A DNA stretch of 64,000 nucleotides from a virus: UHGV virus genome UHGV-1378817, one strand, 5' to 3'. Below, piece by piece: positions 3,508 through 52,068 of this stretch. Position numbers and translations under genes: made by a program. Each line of letters begins with the position of its first letter. Position 1 is the first letter of the stretch. The notes beneath the pieces are model-generated. The model did no database searches, was not told the DNA's origin, and saw only the letters and a list, made by a program, of their open reading frames with translations.

Positions 3508-4518
3508 TTATTCACCACCTTTCAGAGTTGCTTTAACAACCAGCTCTGGACGGGTGTTAACTGCCAGCATGGAAGTTTCAGATTCAATCTTCTCTTCACG
3601 CAGGTATGCAGAGTGTTTATACCACATGTACAGTTCCTGTGCTGGAGTGTTTGCTTCGTTAACATCGTCTGCCGGAGCAAAGTGCAGCTGGAACATCTGA
3701 TCAATACCCATCGGCAGAATGCGAGCTTCTTTCTTAGGAATATTGCCAGAGATATCTTCAATAAAGGTGATACCTTTATGCTCAAACACACGGTATACGC
3801 TGTCTTGACCGCCAGCACCCAGACGGCGACGCAGAGGTTCCTGAGCAGAGCCGTAATAGGTGTATGCCAGTTCTACCAGCGGGTGATGAGTAACAGCACT
3901 GAAGAACTCCGGTGAGCACAGAGCTACAATGCGATAGCCAGCTGCGTTATCACCAGCTTGCAGTGCGATGTGCAGACGAGCTTCTTCCAGAACCTCCATA
4001 GGATCCTGATCTGCTTTTGCAGGGTCGATCTCAACAGACTTCTGAGACACACCCCACAGAGTGTAGTAATCATACTGGCAGGTAGCGTCACCAGGTGCAT
4101 AGGATTTACCAAGAATAGCCTGGAACAGCGCTTTCTCACGCAGTGCTTCATGGGAAACACGGATACGGCGAACAACGCGGGTTACTACGTCCTGAACAGT
4201 TTTCGGAGCATCAGGAGTGAAGTAACGACGGAAGTTCTGGACATCTGCAGCAGTGATACCTTTATCCAGAGGGAAGAACGGGATGTTCAGGTTTTTAACC
4301 TGAGCACGTTCATTACCAACGTAGTTACGCTCACCACCACGACGGCGTGCCGGAATGTCGGTTACAACTTCATCAACACGCTCAATCTGAGCAATTGTTG
4401 AGGTGCCAAGACGAGTTTCGAACAGATCCATGCCGGTAATCAGGCGAAATTGACGCGGAACAAGGTCCAGAGTAGCACCTAAATCGACAATGCCAAATTC
4501 ATCTTTACGAGTAATCAT
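3508..4518 (-). CDS. major capsid protein (putative)
   Basis: 336 aa ORF downstream of scaffold-like and decoration-like ORFs, followed by the strongest terminator in the block; position and size based. Confidence 0.5.
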   Translation of the reverse strand: MITRKDEFGIVDLGATLDLVPRQFRLITGMDLFETRLGTSTIAQIERVDEVVTDIPARRRGGERNYVGNERAQVKNLNIPFFPLDKGITAADVQNFRRYFTPDAPKTVQDVVTRVVRRIRVSHEALREKALFQAILGKSYAPGDATCQYDYYTLWGVSQKSVEIDPAKADQDPMEVLEEARLHIALQAGDNAAGYRIVALCSPEFFSAVTHHPLVELAYTYYGSAQEPLRRRLGAGGQDSVYRVFEHKGITFIEDISGNIPKKEARILPMGIDQMFQLHFAPADDVNEANTPAQELYMWYKHSAYLREEKIESETSMLAVNTRPELVVKATLKGGE

Positions 4519-4569: not shown

Positions 4570-4956
4570 TTATTCACCAAGAGTCTGGACGTGAACTTTG
4601 TTACCTAAAGCTTCCAACTTATCCAGAATTCTTTGGTCTGCTTTAGCTCCATCTGCACCTAACAGCATGTCTTTTGCAAAGGTAACACCATGGACGGCAA
4701 CAACCAGGTTATAGGATTGGCCTACTTCTAACGGTTTTGCAAGATGGACCGTACCAGCATCTTTGACAAGAGCACGGTCAACAAGAACGCCGTACACATC
4801 AGAACCGTCTGCGTTAGCGATGGTACCAGTTTTTGTTACAACAGTGCCAGCGTGGTGATGCTCTGTCAGTGTTACCTTAATCTCTTTAAAATTGTAGCCA
4901 GCATCGCTAGAATCAACTTTGCCGAGCACGATATCAGAATATTGAGCGGTAATCAT
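4570..4956 (-). CDS. putative head decoration/auxiliary capsid protein
   Basis: 128 aa Gly/Val/Thr-rich ORF between scaffold-like and capsid genes. Confidence 0.3.
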   Translation of the reverse strand: MITAQYSDIVLGKVDSSDAGYNFKEIKVTLTEHHHAGTVVTKTGTIANADGSDVYGVLVDRALVKDAGTVHLAKPLEVGQSYNLVVAVHGVTFAKDMLLGADGAKADQRILDKLEALGNKVHVQTLGE

Positions 4957-4976: not shown

Positions 4977-5954
4977 TTATTTGGTAGATTCTGCACGTGC
5001 ACGAGCAAGTGCTTTTGCAACGTTTTCAGCAAGAATTTCTTCTGCGGATTTCGCAATATCATCCACAACAGGTTCGCCATCATTACCATGTTCAGTGGTG
5101 GCAAACTCTTCTTTGGTTTTATGCACCTCTGCTTCCAGCTCTTCAATTTTTGCTTGAGCTTTCTCCAGCATAGCTACGATAGGTTCGTTAGCTTTTTCCA
5201 GCATGAAGTCAACCAGGGTTGCATGATCTTCTTCACCAACAAAGCTTAAAGCTTGAGCCTTAGTCAGCATTTTAGCTTTTTCAACTTCAACCTGGGCCTT
5301 GATGATTTCTTCAGCTTTACTCTGGGTTGCTTTCAGCTCTTCTACTTGCTTCAGCAGATCCAGATACTCTTTAGTTTTGGTTACGTCCACCGGATTCTCC
5401 TCGGTATTTGCGGATTTTGCAACATCATCCACCTCGGCAGTTTTATCCACCTCAGCAGGTTCCTGTACCGCCTTGATCAGGTTCCCTTCTTTATCGAAGA
5501 GATCAGCGGTTACTTGTTCAAAAATCTGTTGTGTTTTTAACAGGCTGTACTGATCTACCACGCTAAGCTGCTTACCTTCTTTTGCAGCTTTATGAATGGT
5601 CACGTTATCACAACGCTCTTCCAGCCATGCAATACAAGACTCTGCGTCAGCTTGCGCCCATTCCCAATCAGGATGCTCTTTAGCCCAAGCCTCCTCTTCA
5701 ATCTCAAAACCAAGCATGTGTGCAAGTGCTTTAGCATCATCATACCACATATCAAAGAAACGACGCAGGTATTCTTCAAAACTAAGCTCCACAGTAACTT
5801 GGCGAAGTGCCTTAACAATATCGTCTGTTAACTGCTCAGGCTTAAGATCACTCTTCATCAAAAGAGATACAGGTCTGTTGTTAGCGCTATAGCCTTGCGC
5901 CTTATGGCACAGGGCAATCCCCTTCTCTTTAATAGTAATCGTTTTTTCAGACAT
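4977..5954 (-). CDS. putative head scaffolding protein
   Basis: 325 aa, highly charged with long predicted coiled-coil stretches (EELKATQSKAEEIIKAQVEVEKAK...); sits between portal-side genes and capsid. Confidence 0.45.
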   Translation of the reverse strand: MSEKTITIKEKGIALCHKAQGYSANNRPVSLLMKSDLKPEQLTDDIVKALRQVTVELSFEEYLRRFFDMWYDDAKALAHMLGFEIEEEAWAKEHPDWEWAQADAESCIAWLEERCDNVTIHKAAKEGKQLSVVDQYSLLKTQQIFEQVTADLFDKEGNLIKAVQEPAEVDKTAEVDDVAKSANTEENPVDVTKTKEYLDLLKQVEELKATQSKAEEIIKAQVEVEKAKMLTKAQALSFVGEEDHATLVDFMLEKANEPIVAMLEKAQAKIEELEAEVHKTKEEFATTEHGNDGEPVVDDIAKSAEEILAENVAKALARARAESTK

Positions 5955-6373
5955 TATTCATTGCCCTCTTCTACAACACTGATCCCGAAGTTTACGTTGG
6001 TAATTTCACCAGTTTCTTCATCAACATTACCTGTTGCCTGAATGCTTAGGCCACCAACAATGCCAGCCTTCTTAGCTTCCCATAATTCAGGATTATTGTA
6101 TTTAACTTTAGCAACCCAAGAGCCAGCCTTGATGACCTGCTCAGTGCCAATTACTACAACATCAAACTCTTCTTGAATCCACGTCTTTTCAATAGTGAAA
6201 GAATCTGTAGAGGTCAAGTGAAAAAGGTTTTCAGAAACTAGGCCTGCGGCGTATGCTGCGTCCCAGTTATCTTTAGCCTTTTTGATGGTGTCTTTACTCA
6301 TCCACTCACCGTGAGCATCTTTAGTGTCAGGTTCGTAGATGATTTCGTAGGAAATCATTTCTTCCTGTGGCAT
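5954..6373 (-). CDS. hypothetical head morphogenesis protein
   Basis: ORF track 5954-6529 overlaps portal; trimmed to ATG at 6373 (MPQEEM...); acidic 139 aa. Confidence 0.3.
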   Translation of the reverse strand: MPQEEMISYEIIYEPDTKDAHGEWMSKDTIKKAKDNWDAAYAAGLVSENLFHLTSTDSFTIEKTWIQEEFDVVVIGTEQVIKAGSWVAKVKYNNPELWEAKKAGIVGGLSIQATGNVDEETGEITNVNFGISVVEEGNE

Positions 6374-6440
6374 CTTATTCCCCATGTGGATTATTTTATC
6401 ACGCCAAAGGAGGTTTTGCAACCCCCTGTGTTGATAATTT

Positions 6441-7997
6441 TTAATTTTCCATGTTGGATATGGAATTATCTCTGGTTGATGACATCTTAGAAGTGCCGTT
6501 GCCAGTGGATCCTGCAGCCATTCCATCACCAGCCCTACTAATGTCCTGGCCCAAGAGCTTCATCAGCTCTTCCTGATCCATGTCCTCGTCAAATCTTTCA
6601 TCAAACCCGCCTACTTCAAGAATCTTATTAATTACTGCAGGAGTTTTTGGCAAGTAACCTACAGCACCGATCCTCTGGACAAACTTGGAGAAGCTCTCCA
6701 TATCCACTTCTTCAATCAGACCAGGTTTCAGTTTAGGCATATCATCATCTTCAAGGATGATACCATTCAATGCCAGAAGCTGTGGAATAAGATCTTTATT
6801 GAAGGCCTCAGTGATAATATCTATATCACGCTGAACAAAATGACCATGGATAGACTGTTTTGACTCAGACAGAGAGAAGGACCCAACGTTATCGTTACCG
6901 AGGTTAATAAAGCCAGCACCGAAACGGTCAAGAATCGCCTTCTTACGGGCATCAATCAAATCTTTAGTGGAATACTGCTTACCCATACCGTCAACCCCCT
7001 TCAGGGTCATGGAGTAAAGCTCTTTACCAGACTTATCTCTATCAGACGGAAGTATAAAGAAACTTTGCTCACCACTATGGGCGTTTGCTGCGTCAAGCAT
7101 AAGGTCTGCAACCATTCTCCCTTCCATTGAATTCGGGTCAATGCTGGCCTTGTTCAAAATATTGGAAGGAATTTTCAGCTCAAGCACACCACCAAGGTCT
7201 TTGGAACAGCCAACAACCTCAAGGTTTTCAATCAGAACTTTCTCACGGAAAGATCTGTAGCAACCTATCATCGGTGACACACCTGCAGGGTTAGATTCTG
7301 TTCCTGACAGGGTCATGAGCATAAGCTTTTTAGCAGGGATGAAAATTTCAGGCTCATTAAAGCCTTTTGAAGGCATTGCAGCAAGAGGTCCAGCCCAGCG
7401 TGCATTCTGAGTGTTTAGAAATGCATTAGGTGATTGATAAATACCTGTCAGTGTTCTACTATTCTTGTCAAAGACAAACGGCTCTGATCTGGACAAACTG
7501 GCCTGAGGTCGGAATGCAATTTTATCAATAAGAAGCATCCCGGTATATTTACCTTCTTTCTCTCTGCGGTATACTTTCTCAAACAGTGAAAAACCATACT
7601 CGTTAAAGGTAGCTGCGCTTCTTGCAATATCTCGAAGAGTTTGTTGGTTTGCCAAATTACGCAAAGAATACTCTATAAGCTCTGCAGCTTTCTTAGAGTC
7701 TTCACTTTTAACATTATAAAGGATCTTAAAATCATTGAATGCTTTCGTGATGAAAACATATTTTGTATCTAAGGCAGTAGCAACTGTGGAATCACATTTC
7801 ATAGTCTCCACTGTGGCAATCAGCTGAGGCCAACGCAATTCCTCAACCATCATAGATTGCGATTCTGCCATAATTTGGGAAAGTGCGCCAGAACCGATCT
7901 CACTCATACGAACATTATGAGTTGGTGCGCCTGCGTTCCCAGATTTATTCACAGTTTTGGCTGTGGCGTTGTGTTTCCTGCGGTTCTTTTTGGACAC
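6441..7997 (-). CDS. portal protein (putative)
   Basis: 518 aa ORF directly downstream of large terminase; size and position typical of portal. Confidence 0.55.
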   Translation of the reverse strand: MSKKNRRKHNATAKTVNKSGNAGAPTHNVRMSEIGSGALSQIMAESQSMMVEELRWPQLIATVETMKCDSTVATALDTKYVFITKAFNDFKILYNVKSEDSKKAAELIEYSLRNLANQQTLRDIARSAATFNEYGFSLFEKVYRREKEGKYTGMLLIDKIAFRPQASLSRSEPFVFDKNSRTLTGIYQSPNAFLNTQNARWAGPLAAMPSKGFNEPEIFIPAKKLMLMTLSGTESNPAGVSPMIGCYRSFREKVLIENLEVVGCSKDLGGVLELKIPSNILNKASIDPNSMEGRMVADLMLDAANAHSGEQSFFILPSDRDKSGKELYSMTLKGVDGMGKQYSTKDLIDARKKAILDRFGAGFINLGNDNVGSFSLSESKQSIHGHFVQRDIDIITEAFNKDLIPQLLALNGIILEDDDMPKLKPGLIEEVDMESFSKFVQRIGAVGYLPKTPAVINKILEVGGFDERFDEDMDQEELMKLLGQDISRAGDGMAAGSTGNGTSKMSSTRDNSISNMEN

Positions 7998-8099: not shown

Positions 8100-9647
8100 T
8101 TAGATAAAACGCTTGAACATAGAAGGTGATGAGATTGATGGAATCACACAAGGAAGTGCTACCTCCTCTTTCTCCAGGAAATTAATCGCAGAAGCTACAC
8201 AGTCGGCCCAGTCGTCTTTTCTATTAAATGTTGATCTTTCCCCGTTGAATTTTTCAAGTTCAGTCAGAAATGCTTCCAGAGTATCAGGATGGAAACTGGA
8301 TTTTACAATCCTCACCATTCCTTGTTGGGCAAGATTGGCAAAAGGTGAGAACCTTGTCAGTTTAGATTTGTTGGAAGGCATTGGGTCTTCTTCAACCCTA
8401 AACCCTTCGGCGAGCAAGGATCTAGAGGAGGTTAAGAACTCACTCTTACCTGCCTGACCTGGGTCCACAGAGAAGACGATTATGCAATCATCACCATCAA
8501 ACTGCGCCTGTTTCCTGATGATCACATCTCGTTCACCAGCCTTTTTACAGAACTTGCCTTCCAGACCTGTGGAATACCTCCCGTCATCCACGTTCTCAGG
8601 ACAATAATCACCGGACAGGTAATAAAAGCCGTCGCTATCTTTACTTACCTTAACACTGGCGGTAAAGTCAGGAAACTTATTACCAGAAGTTCTCTCGGTT
8701 CCTGCCTTATCCCATGCCCTACAAGATACTGATCCAAGGGGCACTCTGTCGGCATCACGAAGGAAAGATCTTTGAAAATAGTTTGCACCCTCAGGCTTTG
8801 CAAACCAGTTACCATGGAGAAGCTGAGCTTTTTCAAGCTCGGGCAGACCTTCAAGGAAAGCAAGGTATTCTGGGTTGTCTCTTAAGCAGACAGGATTATC
8901 GAATATTGTTGCGCCTATAAACGAGAATGACAACGGTCTTGGCTTGATCTCCACACCCAGTCCGTTAACCGTGGTGTATTTCTCTATCAACTCTTCTTTA
9001 GAGTCTCCCCAGATAAATTCACCGTCGCGTCGGATAAAATATCTTTTCTTACCACATTTCTCCGGATCTGGATACCCTTCATCGTCCAACCACCATCTAA
9101 CCAGTTTGGCAAGCATGTGTTCTGAATCGGGGTTACAGCTGATAACCATTCTTGATGGATACTTTGACTGAGATCGCAGACGAGACATCAGATAGTCTAT
9201 CTGCTCCCATTCGAACTGCGTGCCCTCATCGAAGCAAACCATGGTATACTCAAGCCCTTGATGGTTAAGCTTATCTTGTACATACTCCATGTGGCAGTAT
9301 TTTACAACAGCTCCCTTTTTGCTTCTATCCCACTTGCCAGTGTTCGGATCAAACCGTGGAAAAATGAACTTATGATCCTTCTCTCTGAACTTTGGCTTAA
9401 TGTTTTCAGGCAGATCACTATAAATAGCTACTGCTTTAGGCCATAGTCCACCCTCACCTTCCAACTGTGGGGTTGTTCTTCGGAACATAACCACAGAGCT
9501 GTGGGGGTCATCAATAATTTTAAGTGGCATCAATTGCAAGAGGAACGACTTGCCAGACCCTGCGGCACCGCCGATTACCAAAATATCTGCATCGTTTTCG
9601 AGGATCATCTTCTGCTTTTCAGAACACGGTCCGTAAATCTTAGACAT
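8100..9647 (-). CDS. terL: terminase large subunit
   Basis: 515 aa; N-terminal Walker A VIGGAAGSGKS, central acidic motifs, C-terminal nuclease-like half; first gene of morphogenesis block. Confidence 0.8.
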   Translation of the reverse strand: MSKIYGPCSEKQKMILENDADILVIGGAAGSGKSFLLQLMPLKIIDDPHSSVVMFRRTTPQLEGEGGLWPKAVAIYSDLPENIKPKFREKDHKFIFPRFDPNTGKWDRSKKGAVVKYCHMEYVQDKLNHQGLEYTMVCFDEGTQFEWEQIDYLMSRLRSQSKYPSRMVISCNPDSEHMLAKLVRWWLDDEGYPDPEKCGKKRYFIRRDGEFIWGDSKEELIEKYTTVNGLGVEIKPRPLSFSFIGATIFDNPVCLRDNPEYLAFLEGLPELEKAQLLHGNWFAKPEGANYFQRSFLRDADRVPLGSVSCRAWDKAGTERTSGNKFPDFTASVKVSKDSDGFYYLSGDYCPENVDDGRYSTGLEGKFCKKAGERDVIIRKQAQFDGDDCIIVFSVDPGQAGKSEFLTSSRSLLAEGFRVEEDPMPSNKSKLTRFSPFANLAQQGMVRIVKSSFHPDTLEAFLTELEKFNGERSTFNRKDDWADCVASAINFLEKEEVALPCVIPSISSPSMFKRFI

Positions 9648-10750: not shown

Positions 10751-10827
10751 TGGTCTCCACGGAGTGATTCGAACACTCGACCTCCTGATCCCAAATCAGG
10801 CGCTCTACCAAGCTGAGCTACGCGGAG
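10751..10827 (-). tRNA. tRNA-Pro (anticodon UGG)
   Basis: Cloverleaf read by hand: 7-bp acceptor, D arm GCTC/GAGC, anticodon arm CCTGA-TTTGGGA-TCAGG, T loop TTCGAAT, encoded CCA. Confidence 0.8.
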
Positions 10828-10838
10828 TATTTATTATT

Positions 10839-10913
10839 TGGTGGCCCTGGGTGGAATTGAACCACCGTCTGGCGATTATGAGTCGCTTGCTTGAACCTTC
10901 CAGCTACAGGGCC
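10839..10913 (-). tRNA. tRNA-Met or Ile2 (anticodon CAU)
   Basis: Acceptor GGCCCTG/CAGGGCC, anticodon arm GCGA-CTCATAA-TCGC, T loop TTCAATT, encoded CCA. Confidence 0.7.
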
Positions 10914-10914
10914 A

Positions 10915-10990
10915 TGGTGCTGATAGCAGGACTCGAACCTGCAACCTATTGATTACAAATCAATTGCACTACCAATTGTGCTACATCAGC
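10915..10990 (-). tRNA. tRNA-Thr (anticodon UGU)
   Basis: Acceptor GCTGATG, D arm GCAC/GTGC, anticodon arm ATTGA-TTTGTAA-TCAAT, T loop TTCGAGT, CCA. Confidence 0.75.
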
Positions 10991-10995
10991 AAAAA

Positions 10996-11094
10996 GGTGC
11001 TAGGTGATGGAATCGAACCACCTATGTATTCAACGACTACCTCGTCTATTTTCAGGATTAAAAATCCTCGCCCTTGCCAAAGGGCTTACCTAGC
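10996..11094 (-). tRNA. atypical long tRNA-like element (~99 nt; anticodon loop reads UUU with 4-bp stem; long extra arm)
   Basis: Acceptor GCTAGGT/ACCTAGC and canonical T arm GGTGG-TTCGATT-CCATC are clear; anticodon arm and a 30-nt variable region are non-canonical; 3' end ACC not CCA. Confidence 0.35.
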
Positions 11095-11192
11095 TCAGTA
11101 TGTTGACCATGTTGCTAGTCGGCGATGACGACTGTAACATTTGATAATCCGGTTCTGCTTCCGGCTTTCGCTTAATTACAAGGTCAACAATA

Positions 11193-11283
11193 TGGCTGAG
11201 GGTAATGGAATCGAACCATCATCGAGTCATCCTCAACGGGACGGTTTTCAAGACCGCTTGAGCACCATTGCTCCCTACCCTCA
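11193..11283 (-). tRNA. tRNA-Ser (anticodon UGA), type II
   Basis: Acceptor TGAGGGT/ACCCTCA, 3-bp D stem, anticodon arm GCGGT-CTTGAAA-ACCGT, long variable arm, T loop TTCGATT, CCA. Confidence 0.75.
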
Positions 11284-11397
11284 TTTATAAACAATACTGA
11301 TAATGACACTGATTTTCGAGCAGTTAGTGACTAGTATAAACGACGATAAATATCAATGCCATTATCTGTATGATTTATGCATTTAAAACTATAAATT

Positions 11398-11484
11398 TGG
11401 TGGGGAGTGGTGGAGTCGAACCACCCGAGTCGCAATGACAATAGATTTACAGTCTACACCGCTACCTCTACGGGATAACTCCCC
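11398..11484 (-). tRNA. tRNA-Tyr (anticodon GUA), type II
   Basis: Acceptor GGGGAGT/ACTCCCC, anticodon arm GTAGA-CTGTAAA-TCTAT, variable arm, T loop TTCGACT, CCA. Confidence 0.75.
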
Positions 11485-11488
11485 AATT

Positions 11489-11563
11489 TGGCACCCCGTA
11501 CTGGACTCGAACCAGTGTCAACGGCTTAGAAGGCCGCTGCTTTATCCACTAAGCTAACAGGGC
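11489..11563 (-). tRNA. tRNA-Arg (anticodon UCU)
   Basis: Acceptor GCCCTGT/ACGGGGT (two G-U pairs), D arm GCTT/AAGC, anticodon arm GCGGC-CTTCTAA-GCCGT, T arm ACTGG-TTCGAGT-CCAGT, CCA. Confidence 0.7.
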
Positions 11564-26951: not shown

Positions 26952-26960
26952 GGAGGCACT

Positions 26961-27779
26961 TTGAGCAAGAAAGAGTCCAACGACAAATACTACACAAACC
27001 CTGAGTATGCAGAATATCTTGTTGGTAAAGTAAAAGATAAGTATGGGAATTGTGCATACGTTGAGCCTTCTGCTGGAAGGGGTTCTTTTTCAAAACTATT
27101 TTCAGAGATACTGTCGTACGATTTAGTACCAGATCCTGAATTTGAAGGACCAACACCGTGCATTCAGGCAAACTTCTTGGAGGTGCATCCCAAGGCAGAT
27201 GTCTTCATAGGTAACCCACCATTTGGCAAGAATTCATCCTTAGCTTGCAAATTCTTTAACCATTGTGCATCATTGCTAGAGCTTGGAGGGGCTATAGCCT
27301 TCATCTTGCCACGGACATTTGAAAAAATATTTTTTGCAAACAAACTGGACATGTCGATGCACCTTGTCTACAGCGAAAGGTGCCCTAAGAATTCGTTTTT
27401 ACTTAATGGCAAACCTTATGACGTGCCATGTGTTTTCCAAATTTGGGAGAAAAAGGCGTGCAATAGGGATCCTGTAGAGATTGGAGAGAATAAGTTATTT
27501 TCTTTTAGCACACCAGATGACTACGACTTCTGTGTAAGACGTGTTGGGTATAATGCTGGAAAAGTATTGGGGGATGATGACCCAAAATCTGAAGAATCAA
27601 CATATTTCATAAAATCTTTAGTTAACGGTGTTGACAGAGTGTTTGCTGAATGCTATTCTTCTTTTCAAGAAGAAGCAGGTAAGACTGCTGGAATGAAGAG
27701 TATAGGTAAGAAAGAACTACAATACATTTTGGAGACCAGGTATGATCAAAAGCATAGACTTGACCAAAGAACTTACTGA
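26961..27779 (+). CDS. DNA N6-adenine (or N4-cytosine) methyltransferase
   Basis: SAM motif VEPSAGRGSF and catalytic NPPF; track start (TTG 26931) lies inside the terminator, moved to TTG 26961 with GGAGG SD. Confidence 0.65.
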   Translation: MSKKESNDKYYTNPEYAEYLVGKVKDKYGNCAYVEPSAGRGSFSKLFSEILSYDLVPDPEFEGPTPCIQANFLEVHPKADVFIGNPPFGKNSSLACKFFNHCASLLELGGAIAFILPRTFEKIFFANKLDMSMHLVYSERCPKNSFLLNGKPYDVPCVFQIWEKKACNRDPVEIGENKLFSFSTPDDYDFCVRRVGYNAGKVLGDDDPKSEESTYFIKSLVNGVDRVFAECYSSFQEEAGKTAGMKSIGKKELQYILETRYDQKHRLDQRTY

Positions 27780-38658: not shown

Positions 38659-39447
38659 ATGGGTCGAGCTAAAGAAACAAAACGCATGCGTGATGAAGCT
38701 AGAGAGGCTCGCAAATCTGATCGCCTGCGTAAGGCTGCTGAGAAATTTGCTGACGAACGAGAGCACACTGCTCCAGCTCTCCGACCAATGAATAAGAAGC
38801 AGCAAAAGTATCTTGATTATCTAGGGTCACGTAAGATTATTATTGTAAACGGTGTGTTTGGATCCGGTAAGACATTCATGGCATCTGCATATGCAGGTGA
38901 TCTTCTGCGTAAGAACGAGATTGATAAGATCATTGTTGCACGTCCTTACGTTCAGACAGGAAAGACTTCAGGATTTAAACCTGGAAATGCAATGCAGAAA
39001 TTGTGGCCCTATCTTCGAAGCATGATGGACACGATTTGTCGTCGTGTTGGCAAAGGTGCTTTTGCCGCAATGCTGGGAGACGGTCAGAACAGCCGTATCG
39101 AGATTTGTGAAGTTGAAAGCATTCGTGGTCGTAGTTTCGATGAGCGATGCTTTGTCCTGATTGACGAGGCACAGCAAACTAACCCTGAAGAAATGTTGTC
39201 AATTATCACAAGGATCTCTGATCAAGCCACCCTTGTAATTATGGGTGATAATAGCCAACGTGACATCCCTGGTAAATCTGGCCTTGCATGGGTGACGGAT
39301 TTCTTTACTCGTCATCCAGATCCTGAGGTTGGAATGATCAGCTTTGATAGTCCAGACGATGTCGTTCGTTCCGGGTTGGGTCGTCAGATCGCACTCAATC
39401 TTATTGAGGATCGTGCAAATCATATTTGGACCCCTGTTTCCGAGTAA
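38659..39447 (+). CDS. phoH: PhoH-like ATPase
   Basis: Walker A GVFGSGKTF, Walker B VLIDEAQ, PhoH-type C-terminal region. Confidence 0.8.
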   Translation: MGRAKETKRMRDEAREARKSDRLRKAAEKFADEREHTAPALRPMNKKQQKYLDYLGSRKIIIVNGVFGSGKTFMASAYAGDLLRKNEIDKIIVARPYVQTGKTSGFKPGNAMQKLWPYLRSMMDTICRRVGKGAFAAMLGDGQNSRIEICEVESIRGRSFDERCFVLIDEAQQTNPEEMLSIITRISDQATLVIMGDNSQRDIPGKSGLAWVTDFFTRHPDPEVGMISFDSPDDVVRSGLGRQIALNLIEDRANHIWTPVSE

Positions 39448-39492: not shown

Positions 39493-39521
39493 TTGACAAA
39501 TAGGTAAGCTTTAGATATTAT
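39493..39521 (+). promoter_or_regulatory. sigma70-like promoter
   Basis: TTGACA, 17-nt spacer, TATTAT. Confidence 0.6.
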
Positions 39522-39549: not shown

Positions 39550-39861
39550 ATGGCTACAATACAAGAGAAACTGAATAAAATATACTGCCTGTTTGTCTAT
39601 AACGGCGAGACAATTTTGGCAAATAAAGGATCCAAGAATGTGTGGATCAAGGACAGCGGTGGTAACATAATTAACTTAGCGTTGCTACGTGAGCGCCGAC
39701 ACAGATTCTTTATCGAGTCTCGAATTATTGAAAGCAGCACTTGCTACAGAACAGGCGATAAAGTAATTGTTGACAATGATACGTGGTATGTGGTAGACTG
39801 GCAATCATTGAGTTGTGATGCTTCTGACAATCGTAAGTATTCCATAGTGATTGCTAAATAA
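39550..39861 (+). CDS. hypothetical protein
   Basis: 103 aa ORF after promoter. Confidence 0.4.
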   Translation: MATIQEKLNKIYCLFVYNGETILANKGSKNVWIKDSGGNIINLALLRERRHRFFIESRIIESSTCYRTGDKVIVDNDTWYVVDWQSLSCDASDNRKYSIVIAK

Positions 39862-39921: not shown

Positions 39922-40971
39922 ATGAATTTAACACCTCGCAGCACCATGGTACACGGCATGAAAGAAAAACAGAACGGTTTCGAACCTATGAGTAATAAAA
40001 TGTTTGGTATGCCGGGCGGTATTATGGAAACATACAGCTACCCAACACCTGTTGTTGACCACGTTCTTTATATCGACGATTTGGAGGACCTGCAGGATCA
40101 TATGTCTCGTCTGCAGACGATTCGTATGGCTCAGCCGGAAGAAAGCATTCGCGTGATCATCAATAGCCCCGGGGGTTGCGTGCACATTGCAATGGCTTAT
40201 CTGCAGGCATTCCGCGAGTCTCAGGCAAGCGTTGTTGCACATGCTGAAGGGATGTGCTGCTCTGCTGGAACAATCTTATGGCTTGGTTGCAAAGAACGTA
40301 CTGTGGCTCCGGACACAGAATTTATGTTCCACTACTATCAAGGTGGCACTTATGGTAACGGTGTTAACATGAATATTCAGGTCAGCTACTGGAAAAAACG
40401 TTTTGAACACCTGATCGAAAAATACTACGGTGGGGTGCTGACAGAAGATGAGATCGCATCCATCACAGCTGGTGGCGAAGTGTGGTTGGACGGAGAAGAG
40501 TTGGCAGCACGTACTGGAGCTATTATTCTGGATGAAGGTAACATACAACGCATCCAGAATGGACAAAAACCGAAAAAGCTTCTGGCAAAAGGGGATGAAG
40601 AAGGCGTGTTAGGTGAAGCAGGTCTTCCGGAGATTCACCAGTGCACCTCTTTAGATGAGTTAGTTCATGCTGTTGAATCTGCAAAAGCGGGTGGTTCGAA
40701 AGGTGATGTTCACACTGTGTTCCTGAACCTGCAGATGGAAAGTGGTGAGACCGTTAAGATTGCCTTAGGTGAGATCACCTCAGAAGATTTGCAGCGATTC
40801 TCTGTTGTTGAACTTCAAGACATTCTGTCCCAATTGAAGACAACCCTGAACGGCGGTGAAGAGGTTAAGGTAAAAGATAAGACTCGTAAGCGTCTGGTGG
40901 ACAATATTATTAAAACAGCAAAAGAGCTTAATGAAAAAATCCTGGGTGCAGGAATTGTCGAAGAAGCTTAA
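39922..40971 (+). CDS. ClpP-like serine peptidase with C-terminal extension
   Basis: INSPGG and catalytic-Ser context GMCCSAGT resemble ClpP/S14; about 150 aa extra C-terminal region. Confidence 0.6.
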   Translation: MNLTPRSTMVHGMKEKQNGFEPMSNKMFGMPGGIMETYSYPTPVVDHVLYIDDLEDLQDHMSRLQTIRMAQPEESIRVIINSPGGCVHIAMAYLQAFRESQASVVAHAEGMCCSAGTILWLGCKERTVAPDTEFMFHYYQGGTYGNGVNMNIQVSYWKKRFEHLIEKYYGGVLTEDEIASITAGGEVWLDGEELAARTGAIILDEGNIQRIQNGQKPKKLLAKGDEEGVLGEAGLPEIHQCTSLDELVHAVESAKAGGSKGDVHTVFLNLQMESGETVKIALGEITSEDLQRFSVVELQDILSQLKTTLNGGEEVKVKDKTRKRLVDNIIKTAKELNEKILGAGIVEEA

Positions 40972-40983
40972 ACATTAATTCTA

Positions 40984-41006
40984 AAGCCCTCTTCGGAGGG
41001 CTTTTA
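40984..41006 (+). terminator. intrinsic terminator
   Basis: AGCCCTC-ttcg-GAGGGCT followed by TTTATGAT, 13 nt after ClpP-like stop. Confidence 0.55.
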
Positions 41007-41022
41007 TGATCTGGAGATTTGC

Positions 41023-41556
41023 ATGACTTGTGCTAGAAAACCTGATGAACAACGTAACGCCTACGACGAGTATGTGACACCGGAGTGGTGTGCAGAAGGG
41101 CTGTATGACCTTATTCCGTTCCCAGAAGACTGGACCTACTTAGAGCCTTGCAGGAATAGTGCCTCAGGTGTGTTTTACTCCCGTATGCCGTTAGGATCTG
41201 CATGGGGAGAAATCCAAGAAGGTGTTGACTATCTGAATACAGAATACAACCATGTTGACTGTATTATCACCAACCCACCATACAGCCTAGCTCGTGAGTT
41301 TGTAGACAAGGCGTTGAAAGATGCTGACGTAGTTATTATGCTTTTGCGTCTTAATTTTCTGGAAAGCAAAGCCAGATTTGAATGGTGGCTTGATAATGCA
41401 CCCACTACTGTGATCACAATATCTAAGCGTCCATCATTTCAATCAAATGGTAGAACTGACGGGCAAGCATATGCGTATTTTGTGTGGGATAAGAAAAACC
41501 GTTTAGGCTTGCCGCCATTTATGTGGTTGGCACCACCAGAGGTGGACCTGAAATGA
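41023..41556 (+). CDS. small N6-adenine methyltransferase-like protein
   Basis: Catalytic-type motif IITNPPY; 177 aa. Confidence 0.5.
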   Translation: MTCARKPDEQRNAYDEYVTPEWCAEGLYDLIPFPEDWTYLEPCRNSASGVFYSRMPLGSAWGEIQEGVDYLNTEYNHVDCIITNPPYSLAREFVDKALKDADVVIMLLRLNFLESKARFEWWLDNAPTTVITISKRPSFQSNGRTDGQAYAYFVWDKKNRLGLPPFMWLAPPEVDLK

Positions 41557-49365: not shown

Positions 49366-49626
49366 TTGATGAAGATTAAATTGAAAAACCTTGAAACGGC
49401 AGAGATTCAGGACGGTGTTGATTTCCGTTCTAAAGATGGTGACATCTTAGAGGTAAATATTCCAACCTACGAGCTGATTAAAGGTTTTGGCAACGTCCCA
49501 GAGGAAGGTATCGCAGACGTTCTTCTAATGTTAATCGTTAGTGGGACAGTGTTCTTGGGTGAAGGTGAGAACGCTATTGCAATCCCAAGCCATTTTTATG
49601 AAGTAGTTGACGAAGAGGTGCTGTAA
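49366..49626 (+). CDS. small protein, family A-like
   Basis: MMKIKLKNL... N-terminus and ...YEVVDEEVL C-terminus. Confidence 0.4.
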   Translation: MMKIKLKNLETAEIQDGVDFRSKDGDILEVNIPTYELIKGFGNVPEEGIADVLLMLIVSGTVFLGEGENAIAIPSHFYEVVDEEVL

Positions 49627-49977
49627 ATGAAAGTAGAAATTACCGGTTTTGATATTAATATGGTTCCGGAAGATATTTTAGCTAAATTGCCGGAAGGTTT
49701 TGGTAACGGTGTTGTGGTGGATGCTGTTCCTCCTACCAAAGACATTCTGCTGCAGTATGGTGTAGCAGAGGAAGATGTCGATAAAGTTCTTACAATGATG
49801 GCAATCGATCGTGTTGTCGTTGTTAAAGGTCTCGATAATTTTGAGAGTGATCCCCTGATTATTCGTGGAGATGACTACAAAATCATCGATAATGAAGGCC
49901 AAGAGTTCTATGAGCCTTGTGCAGAAGATATTCTTAACTTATTACTGGAAGCAGGTACCGAAGAGGAGGACGAATAA
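49627..49977 (+). CDS. hypothetical acidic protein
   Basis: 116 aa, MKVEITG N-terminus, acidic tail. Confidence 0.4.
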   Translation: MKVEITGFDINMVPEDILAKLPEGFGNGVVVDAVPPTKDILLQYGVAEEDVDKVLTMMAIDRVVVVKGLDNFESDPLIIRGDDYKIIDNEGQEFYEPCAEDILNLLLEAGTEEEDE

Positions 49978-50306
49978 TGAAGATTGACCCGTTACTGAAG
50001 GCTCGTGCAGAAAAAGCGTACACCATTAAGCTGACCAACCTGGTTCCTACTTGTCATCCAGATGTAGGTTGGCCTGAAGGTCTGGTAGAGGGGACTGTAA
50101 CAGCTGCATACCTCCCTAACATCAAATACCTCATGGAGATCTTAGAGATGGATGAGGAAACTGCAGAACAGTTCCAGTTGGACATGAAACAAAGTGGGAC
50201 TCTGGTTATTCACGGGTGGTACAATACTAAAGATGCAGAAGACCCTCTTGTAACTTCTAATCTGGCATATGAAATCTTAGGACCTTTGAACCTGGGGGAA
50301 GACTAA
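49977..50306 (+). CDS. hypothetical protein
   Basis: 109 aa; ATGA overlap. Confidence 0.4.
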   Translation: MKIDPLLKARAEKAYTIKLTNLVPTCHPDVGWPEGLVEGTVTAAYLPNIKYLMEILEMDEETAEQFQLDMKQSGTLVIHGWYNTKDAEDPLVTSNLAYEILGPLNLGED

Positions 50307-50593
50307 TGAAAGATCTGGTTAAGATTAAGATTAAAGATACCAACGGCGAACTCAGCCATTTTGGAATTAATGATGGTGACGAGCTGATCGCACACCTACC
50401 TACCAAGGAAGTTGTAAGCAAAGCAGTTGCCGGAGAAGAAGATGCAATGCAGGCTGCAGGTGTGGATGAAAACTATGTAGCCATGTGTATGTGCCGAGAT
50501 CAGGTTGTTCTGTATAAAGCGTATCGACCAAACGGAGCCACGGAGTGGCTTGTATTCCGACCTGAAGGATATGAAATCCTAGAGGCACTATGA
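50306..50593 (+). CDS. hypothetical protein
   Basis: 95 aa; ATGA overlap. Confidence 0.4.
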   Translation: MKDLVKIKIKDTNGELSHFGINDGDELIAHLPTKEVVSKAVAGEEDAMQAAGVDENYVAMCMCRDQVVLYKAYRPNGATEWLVFRPEGYEILEAL

Positions 50594-50682
50594 TAAATCT
50601 TGCCAAGGTTGCAATGGTCCTGCTAATTATTTGCTGGTCAGTAACCTTAACACTGTGTCTTGTATTTCAGTAAGGTGCTTAT

Positions 50683-50946
50683 ATGAACATCCTGATGTGG
50701 GTTGTAGCAGTGGCGTTTGTTGCATGTTTTTGCTGCTGGGTTGCGGTGAGGATTTCTGTAGCTACCCTTCGGAAGTTGGGGTTCTCAGAGTGGGATATTA
50801 ATATTCTTTCTTTTCGCAATGAAACAATCTCAGCCGCCCTGCTCTGTAAGAAATTCAAGTGGGAACCTTGTGAGGTCATGAGCTATCTAAGAACAGGTGA
50901 TATCCCTGAAAGATTTAAAAAAGTTCTTGACGGCGATGATAAATGA
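50683..50946 (+). CDS. membrane protein (N-terminal TM)
   Basis: 87 aa; MNILMWVVAVAFVACFCCWVAV hydrophobic N-terminus. Confidence 0.4.
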   Translation: MNILMWVVAVAFVACFCCWVAVRISVATLRKLGFSEWDINILSFRNETISAALLCKKFKWEPCEVMSYLRTGDIPERFKKVLDGDDK

Positions 50947-51101
50947 CAGTATAGTGACTAACAAGAGGTGGTGAGTGATTGATTTTACTGAAGCTTTAAT
51001 GATGGCCTTGTCTGTTTTAGCGCTATCGGTGTGTTTTGGGGCGTTATTCACATCTCTGGTTAAAGTTTTACATACAGTATTATTACCCAAGGAGCGCAGT
51101 A

Positions 51102-51353
51102 ATGACGAAGATTGACTTGAATGCTGGCGACCATGTTGTTGTCAAATGCATTGGAGATTATCTTGGATTCACAATCGGCAATACTTACGAAGCGGTAGTG
51201 GCGAAGGTTTATCATGATAAAGTCCTCAGTCTTGTATTTGACTGCGATGATGATGGGGATGACCGATACGTCTGTGAGGTGCTGGCACGAGACGATAGTG
51301 AAGACCAGAAATTCCTGGTTATTGAACTGAACGGTATTTTTGTAGAACGTTAA
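51102..51353 (+). CDS. hypothetical protein
   Basis: ATG 51102 with AAGGAG SD (track start is further upstream). Confidence 0.4.
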   Translation: MTKIDLNAGDHVVVKCIGDYLGFTIGNTYEAVVAKVYHDKVLSLVFDCDDDGDDRYVCEVLARDDSEDQKFLVIELNGIFVER

Positions 51354-51381
51354 TTTAAAACAACATAAGGAGACTCTTACT

Positions 51382-51687
51382 ATGGCTAAATCTAAAGTTG
51401 AACTGTTCACCTCTCTTCCTTCTGACACTGCAGAACGTGATCGCCTTCGCAAAACAATCGAAGAGCTGGTGGAACTCCAGCTTCAGATTAAAGATCTGAA
51501 AGATGCCATCAAGGATATCATTCTCGTTGAGAAGCAGGATCATCTGTATTCTCCTAAATTCATCAAATCTCTGGTGGCTACAGAGTTCGATATTCGCTAT
51601 GAGGCTGAAAAACGTCGCGCTAAAATCGAAGAAGAGGTTGAGCACATGTCTGAGGCAGACATTCTGTTCAAACGCTCTGTAGAATAA
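51382..51687 (+). CDS. hypothetical protein
   Basis: 101 aa helical ORF. Confidence 0.4.
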   Translation: MAKSKVELFTSLPSDTAERDRLRKTIEELVELQLQIKDLKDAIKDIILVEKQDHLYSPKFIKSLVATEFDIRYEAEKRRAKIEEEVEHMSEADILFKRSVE

Positions 51688-51692
51688 TGACA

Positions 51693-51725
51693 AAGAGAGG
51701 GGCCTGGGCCCCTCTTTCACTATTT
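51693..51725 (+). terminator. intrinsic terminator-like hairpin
   Basis: AGAGGGGCC-tgg-GCCCCTCT followed by TTCACTATTT, directly after 51687 stop. Confidence 0.5.
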
Positions 51726-51741
51726 GCAAAAGGAACCAGCT

Positions 51742-52068
51742 ATGAGAATGCCAATCACTGTGAAAGAGCTAAATGAACGTGATGCAGGTGGTCTATGGCC
51801 TGCACGAAAAATCCGCTGCGTCTATATGAAAGAGAATCTTGAACATCTTGATCAACAGATCAAGGTCGGTGATATTTTTGAGGTCTTCTATTCCAATCGT
51901 CGTAACTGGGAAACCATTCAGCCTTCTGGTTTTGTTCTTGCCAAACTTGACACTGGAGAAGTGATTATCCCTGGGTTGGATATTGTCTTCGAAATTATCC
52001 AGGAGTGGGATCCGGATAAGATTAGATACGAAGAATTATTCGGTAAAGGTATTATCAAACCTGTGTGA
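51742..52068 (+). CDS. hypothetical protein
   Basis: ATG 51742 with AAGGA SD. Confidence 0.4.
   Translation: MRMPITVKELNERDAGGLWPARKIRCVYMKENLEHLDQQIKVGDIFEVFYSNRRNWETIQPSGFVLAKLDTGEVIIPGLDIVFEIIQEWDPDKIRYEELFGKGIIKPV

Follow-up and report, generated by a model that had tools for sequence, protein, structure and literature searches.

What does a ClpP-like peptidase with a long C-terminal extension do in a phage genome when its gene lies far from the head genes? The question is raised by one locus in a stretch of virus DNA (UHGV virus genome UHGV-1378817; 64,000 nucleotides, hereafter the window). Such a protein could mature the prohead from a distance, join the host Clp machinery, serve as a structural protein with little or no catalysis, or act as a peptidase of its own in the infected cell. 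Sequence comparison and structure prediction favor the last of these, and we assign a probability of roughly 0.6 to the gene encoding a ClpP-fold serine peptidase outside head assembly, which would be pre-late, cytoplasmic, and probably independent of a host unfoldase.

The gene, its transcription unit and its neighbors

The source phage of the window is an rV5-like Vequintavirus, an E. coli myovirus of ~136 kb, and more than 100 phage records are 97-98% identical to the 3-kb region around the ClpP-like gene. The gene is already known, and rV5-type genomes have carried its label since 2013, when rV5 gp122 was entered as 'ClpP (ATP-dependent) protease subunit' with 349 aa and a pI of 5.0 (PMC3606486 Table S3). 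The window protein is 96-99% identical to proteins labelled 'ATP-dependent protease subunit' or 'ClpP-like protease', and it matches phrog_5410 (E=8.8e-154) over residues 24-345 and profile positions 4-322 of 323, the C-terminal part included. Together with rV5 gp122, phrog_5410 ('ATP-dependent protease', or 'ClpP-like protease' in BASEL phages) represents the same family at full length. The two loci share the same neighbors, the promoter P121, and the terminator t122, with 97-99% identity to many Vequintavirus records, and the window gene is another isolate's copy of rV5 gp122 with no material difference. Functional studies of phage-encoded ClpP, ICP1 ClpP, or Vequintavirinae ClpP were not found in the searchable literature.

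The first-pass annotation recognized a ClpP-like peptidase from an INSPGG motif and a GxxxSAG serine context, and this identification is borne out. The motifs occupy residues 80-85 (INSPGG) and 110-116 (GMCCSAG, containing Ser114), Pfam CLP_protease (PF00574) matches residues 59-168 (E=1e-12; 48.8 bits, cutoff 20.2), and the best sequence matches in the PDB are all genuine ClpPs. An AAGGA ribosome-binding site lies 7 nt 5' of the open reading frame.

Genes 121 and 122 form a predicted promoter-to-terminator unit (Table 1), and the 103-aa ORF upstream is probably co-transcribed with the ClpP-like gene. This ORF has no match in Pfam or NCBIfam; GAP31 and Mydo each have a homologue with 30% identity, placed two genes 5' of their ClpP-like gene. 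The terminator that had been proposed directly after the gene is real and identical to rV5 t122, for which a stability of -14.9 kcal/mol has been given (rV5 Table S4), and it was missed by a simple terminator pattern scan. Predicted rV5 late promoters (TGGTAAAATA type) have been described in front of structural genes alone, among them the portal-capsid block (rV5 Table S4). From the predicted promoter class, host RNA polymerase would transcribe genes 121-122 before the late genes.

The placement of the gene in a metabolism block away from the head genes was also confirmed: nrdAB, nrdDG, thyA, and a PhoH-like gene lie upstream, and the major capsid gene is ~35 kb away. A similar setting is common to relatives. 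Twelve lineages were sampled, namely Vequintavirus, Seunavirus, Mydovirus, Certrevirus, ICP1, Otagovirus, Barbavirus, Pakpunavirus, two T5-like Demerecviridae, and two T4-like phages, and in none of the 12 does the ClpP-like gene belong to a head module; its neighbors are genes for replication, nucleotide metabolism, or lysis in every case. Non-head ClpP homologues are carried by large virulent phages of several families. In 8 of the 12 lineages, a PhoH gene is found no more than four genes upstream. It directly adjoins the ClpP-like gene in Otagovirus, with an overlap of the two, and in Barbavirus, which also has a DNA adenine methylase downstream as in Vequintavirinae; such a methyltransferase gene is often the next one downstream of the ClpP-like gene. 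The linkage of PhoH and the ClpP-like gene could be inherited synteny among distantly related myoviruses. The phage of the window has at least two putative N6-adenine DNA methyltransferase genes: one (41023-41556, + strand; weak Pfam Dam/EcoRI_methylase match, E ~1e-3) directly follows the terminator, and another is placed at ~26,960-27,770 by offset from L001 7960-8766.

Table 1. Features of the ClpP-like locus and of the head module, in window coordinates
Feature	Position	Strand	Basis or remark
Major capsid protein (Phage_cap_E)	3508-4518	-	~35 kb from ClpP-like gene
Decoration protein	4570-4956	-	head module
Scaffold-like / 'capsid protein' gene	4977-5954	-	head module
Likely prohead protease, Peptidase_S78_2/XkdF type (rV5 gp63, phrog_1530)	5954-6385	-	between portal and scaffold-like gene
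Portal	6441-7997	-	head module
Large terminase	8100-9647	-	one uninterrupted 515-aa ORF
PhoH-like ATPase gene	38659-39447	+	Pfam PhoH E=3.6e-47
Predicted sigma70-type promoter, TTGACA-17-TATTAT	39493-39521	+	scan, 11/12 match; equals rV5 P121 (rV5 Table S4)
103-aa ORF (rV5 gp121, phrog_5456)	39550-39861	+	phrog_5456 E=1.5e-39
ClpP-like peptidase CDS	39922-40971	+	349 aa including C-terminal domain; ATG start; rV5 gp122 orthologue; phrog_5410
ClpP-fold core, residues ~37-215	40030-40566	+	AlphaFold2 pLDDT >94; Foldseek; column analysis
Flexible linker, residues ~216-240	40567-40641	+	pLDDT <50 at 226-239; length and sequence vary among homologues
Folded C-terminal alpha/beta domain, residues ~241-343	40642-40950	+	family-private; weak SAP/Rho_N-like helix-loop-helix at ~288-332
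Intrinsic terminator, GCCCTC-TTCG-GAGGGC-TTTTAT	40986-41007	+	direct reading and folding; equals rV5 t122

Fold, active site and docking pocket

An AlphaFold2 model of the protein was built on 56 sequences (mean pLDDT 85) and has three parts: a ClpP core (residues ~37-215), a disordered linker (~222-240), and a separate folded domain (~241-343). In a Foldseek search of the PDB, the top 50 matches of the model were all ClpP, with a target-normalised TM of ~0.7. The window protein shares with cellular ClpP (MEROPS S14; TIGR00493) the fold, the Ser and His positions, the oxyanion Gly, the INSPGG motif, and a Gly-rich handle segment, whereas its identity to cellular ClpP is only ~20-27% and the linker and C-terminal domain are additions.

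E. coli ClpP was added to the 56-sequence alignment, in which every queried residue matched its expected identity and number. Ser97, His122, and the oxyanion Gly68 of the E. coli enzyme correspond to Ser114, His137, and Gly85; the first two are invariant in the 56 sequences, and Gly85 is nearly so (gapped in one sequence). The column of the catalytic Asp171 is occupied by Glu186 in the window protein and its closest kin, by Gln in 29 of the 35 full-length relatives, and by Asp in short phage ClpP-like proteins and most cellular ClpPs, some cellular ClpPs in the alignment having Asn. Absence of a Ser-His-Asp triad had been named beforehand as an argument against a protease; Ser114 and His137 are in place and the third residue is Glu or Gln, so this argument holds in part. 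Arg170 of ClpP, the 'oligomerisation sensor' between the rings, is replaced by Gly184, which is invariant in the family.

The pocket of ClpP that receives the IGF/IGL loops of ClpX/ClpA is formed by L23, L48, F49, A52, Y60, Y62, F82, I90, M92, F112, L114, and L189 together with the C-terminal strand (bioRxiv 10.1101/820209). Eight of these positions are robustly aligned with the window protein (Y60 to R77, Y62 to I79, F82 to E99, I90 to H107, M92 to E109, F112 to T127, L114 to A129, and L189 to I208), while the counterparts of L23, L48, and F49 are alignment-dependent, helix B having a 5-residue deletion. All 35 family members have R77, E99, H107, and E109, and Ser or Ala fills the L114 column. 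Five of the eight residues are thus polar, charged, or small, four of these being invariant, and the hydrophobic apical pocket for IGF/IGL binding is lacking. With invariant polar or charged side chains in place of this pocket and an invariant Gly in place of the Arg170 sensor, docking of ClpX or ClpA in the canonical manner is unlikely, and the label 'ATP-dependent ClpP subunit' on gp122 is doubtful and probably misleading.

A conventional ATP-dependent ClpP subunit would form tetradecamers fed by host ClpX/ClpA, alone or mixed with host ClpP, and would boost or redirect host Clp proteolysis. Such a role is in keeping with the Pfam CLP_protease domain and the ClpP fold, with the retention of the handle-region motif Q-GG-x-x-G as well as of the Ser, His, and oxyanion residues, and with the cellular ClpPs that have Asn at the Asp position. 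We nevertheless consider it unlikely, given the altered pocket and the Gly at the Arg170 position. In the model, moreover, a beta-strand takes the place of helix A of ClpP, and nothing corresponds to the N-terminal loop sequence of ClpP. Since the C-terminal strand of ClpP belongs to the pocket, the linker and C-terminal domain would leave the core at the docking site itself, where an unfoldase would sit. The score of the protein at the ClpP equivalog, 36 bits against a cut-off of 308.6, also argues against this role.

Relaxed catalysis offers another explanation, in which a weak or inactive ClpP-fold protein is put to structural use, for example as a decoy or cap that interferes with the ClpP complexes of the host or as a platform for assembling the C-terminal domain. 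The Gln at the catalytic Asp position in most relatives, which means that peptidase activity could be weak or absent, and the loss of the adjacent Arg sensor both point this way, and the polar patch conserved on the apical face suggests an interface for protein-protein contacts. However, relatives of ~40% identity all keep Ser114, His137, and the oxyanion Gly, which argues for selection on catalysis, and Gln or Glu could still orient the His. A purely structural role is, on balance, quite improbable.

The curated families give a similar picture of a protein that stands apart. The best NCBIfam match is 'head maturation protease, ClpP-related' (NF045542) with 58.9 bits against a cut-off of 120, and the true ClpP models reach 36-42 bits against cut-offs of 228-309 (TIGR00493, 36 versus 308.6; PRK00277, 40.3 versus 249). 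As both scores are below their cut-offs, the protein is placed in neither family. Among the PHROGs, the non-head phrog_1827 scores 1e-39, compared with 2.5e-21 or weaker for the head-maturation PHROGs. The closest outgroup is phrog_1827, comprising the ICP1 gp213 core, phiPsa381_045, and 'ATP-dependent protease' proteins of T5-like and T4-like phages, whose genes are not in head modules and often come shortly after PhoH. Unlike the window protein, members of phrog_1827 have ~200 aa, keep Asp at the triad position, and are without the C-terminal domain. ICP1 has an unrelated one, and its tail was rejected as a homologue (hhalign probability 0.3%).

The C-terminal part was described in the first-pass annotation as ~150 unrelated and acidic residues. 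The former property stands, as a stretch of ~135-145 residues at the end shows no relation to ClpP and folds separately, and the latter is overstated, since the net charge is -5 over residues 206-349 compared with -13 for the ClpP core. An acidic C-terminus as a scaffold-like feature was accordingly rejected, the C-terminal part being less acidic than the core. In the model, the domain consists of a helix, a beta-hairpin, and three helices, and it is found almost only in fusion with the ClpP core. No structural relative was found apart from the weak SAP/Rho_N-like motif, and the Pfam SAP, Rho_N, and HeH models gave no match to the domain even at E<=10. The domain differs from SAP/Rho_N/HeH motifs by a loop that is ~9 residues longer and by basic residues that are not conserved across the family, in a test that is partly circular as the SAP-like comparison set was chosen from matches to the same profile. 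A nested internal start in the style of lambda C/Nu3 has no sequence support when Met codons are considered: the sole Met of the C-terminal part, M273, is inside the beta-hairpin.

For the Asp to Glu/Gln exchange, the lost docking pocket, and the orphan C-terminal domain, no earlier description was found in the literature. These three features, which are computational observations, appear to be undescribed as far as could be found.

The head module and its own protease

The head module of the window contains a likely prohead protease of another type. The protein encoded at its canonical position matches PF14550 (E=1.5e-17; 64.2 bits, cutoff 24) as well as head-maturation-protease PHROGs, and gave no match in NCBIfam, as was also the case for the scaffold-like protein, and no meaningful match in a PDB sequence search. 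In 14 homologues of 59-74% identity, H25, H56, and S114 are invariant, the Ser being located in a GG[LV]SI motif. This pattern is presumably that expected of a His/Ser active site in an HK97/assemblin-type fold. The orthologue CB7_5, named 'prohead core protein protease', has been detected by mass spectrometry in virions of Pectobacterium phage CB7 (PMC7344957), and an orthologue has also been detected by mass spectrometry in W70 virions. The true head protease of rV5-type phages is thus likely to be the S78_2 protein and not the ClpP-like gp122.

Several annotation details of this module deserve mention. The S78_2 protease is labelled 'DNA methyltransferase' in RefSeq (e.g. APECc02 gp212) and in phrog_1530, and 'CHP' in rV5 (gp63); the methyltransferase label looks like a propagated misannotation. 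A mechanical ORF for the protease runs from a GTG at 6529 and overlaps the portal gene, and comparison with homologues favors a start at the ATG of position 6385. In other Vequintavirinae genera, the protease has an N-terminal extension of ~65 aa (MKY.SIADLPAS...), which is absent from the Vequintavirus version. The large terminase gene is split by introns or a homing endonuclease in rV5 and APECc02, in the latter into two pieces with an endonuclease VII gene between them, and is intact in the window.

C-terminal extensions are a common capsid-targeting device in head maturation proteases. The first-pass annotation had considered that the ClpP-like protein might be a prohead protease encoded apart from the head genes, in which case its C-terminal domain would target the procapsid as in lambda gpC/Nu3 or ClpP-MCP fusions. 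Similarity does point in this direction, as the best NCBIfam model is a ClpP-related head maturation protease, several head-maturation PHROGs match at 1e-13 to 2.5e-21, and the proteases of NF045542 (lambda gpC-type, ClpP-MCP fusions) share with the window protein a ClpP fold with a C-terminal add-on; genomic location and promoter class, however, differ. T4-like and T5-like phages have prohead proteases of their own. A head role is very improbable, with an intact S78_2 protease in the portal-scaffold slot that is seen in CB7 and W70 virions, a host-type promoter on a gene ~35 kb from the capsid gene, members of the same clade outside head modules in T4-like and T5-like phages, and an NF045542 score below the cut-off. 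The ClpP-like protein is not listed in the virion proteomes of rV5, CB7, and W70, three Vequintavirinae, and rV5 gp122 has no virion MS flag (rV5 Table S3). Absence from virion proteomes is weak evidence against a head role, because prohead proteases often leave the capsid.

A possible role in the infected cell

A ClpP-fold peptidase outside head assembly would act in the cytoplasm of the infected cell as a Ser-His(-Glu/Gln) enzyme. The alternative offered at the outset, a phage protease directed at host proteins, is compatible with the evidence, as are other cytoplasmic substrates. Because the ClpP C-terminal strand forms part of the pocket, the C-terminal domains would be located on the apical face, the usual binding site of an unfoldase, and there they may function as a receptor for a substrate or partner, or as a gate. 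The role proposed for this domain is much less certain than the overall picture.

A bolder proposal combines these elements into a self-compartmentalised protease of new architecture. It would consist of a ClpP-fold ring without AAA+ docking and with tethered SAP-like receptors over the apical face, which recruit a partner or a nucleic-acid-bound substrate before the late phase, and it might act together with the 103-aa protein or the PhoH-like ATPase. Such an enzyme would also be a candidate trigger for the EcCdnG 'protease tripwire'. We regard the combined proposal as speculative and unlikely.

Cleavage by a phage protease activates the CBASS enzyme EcCdnG (2026 preprint, 10.64898/2026.03.04.709575). 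It also restricts Bas48-59 (Vequintavirinae) with a specificity that differs from that for T4 gp21, and the preprint leaves the trigger unidentified (10.64898/2026.03.04.709575). Vequintavirinae have two candidate proteases for this trigger, the S78_2 head protease and the ClpP-like protein. Since EcCdnG senses cleavage by a phage protease, it now matters for experiments to know which proteases these phages produce and at what stage.

Some further observations concern the window as a whole. Approximately 19 'Campylobacter phage' records (host C. jejuni; e.g. MG065635, MG065653) are ~97.8% identical to the window sequence, which suggests mislabelled or contaminating phages in these submissions. 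Seven tRNA genes (Pro, Met, Thr, Ser, Tyr, Arg) are located at 10751-11563 on the - strand and include one odd call of 99 nt with a 4-base anticodon (10996-11094), which may be a pseudogene or an interrupted tRNA; the pseudo-tRNA of APECc02 is elsewhere in the same cluster, where ARAGORN calls tRNA-Tyr. In the well-curated relative EduardKellenberger, a stretch of ~2.5 kb before a strand switch has no annotated CDS, and it corresponds to ~49450-52000 of the window by offset from L001 30453-33005. A replication origin, regulatory elements, or RNA features could reside in this stretch, and the GC skew of the window changes sign nearby, at ~53-54 kb.
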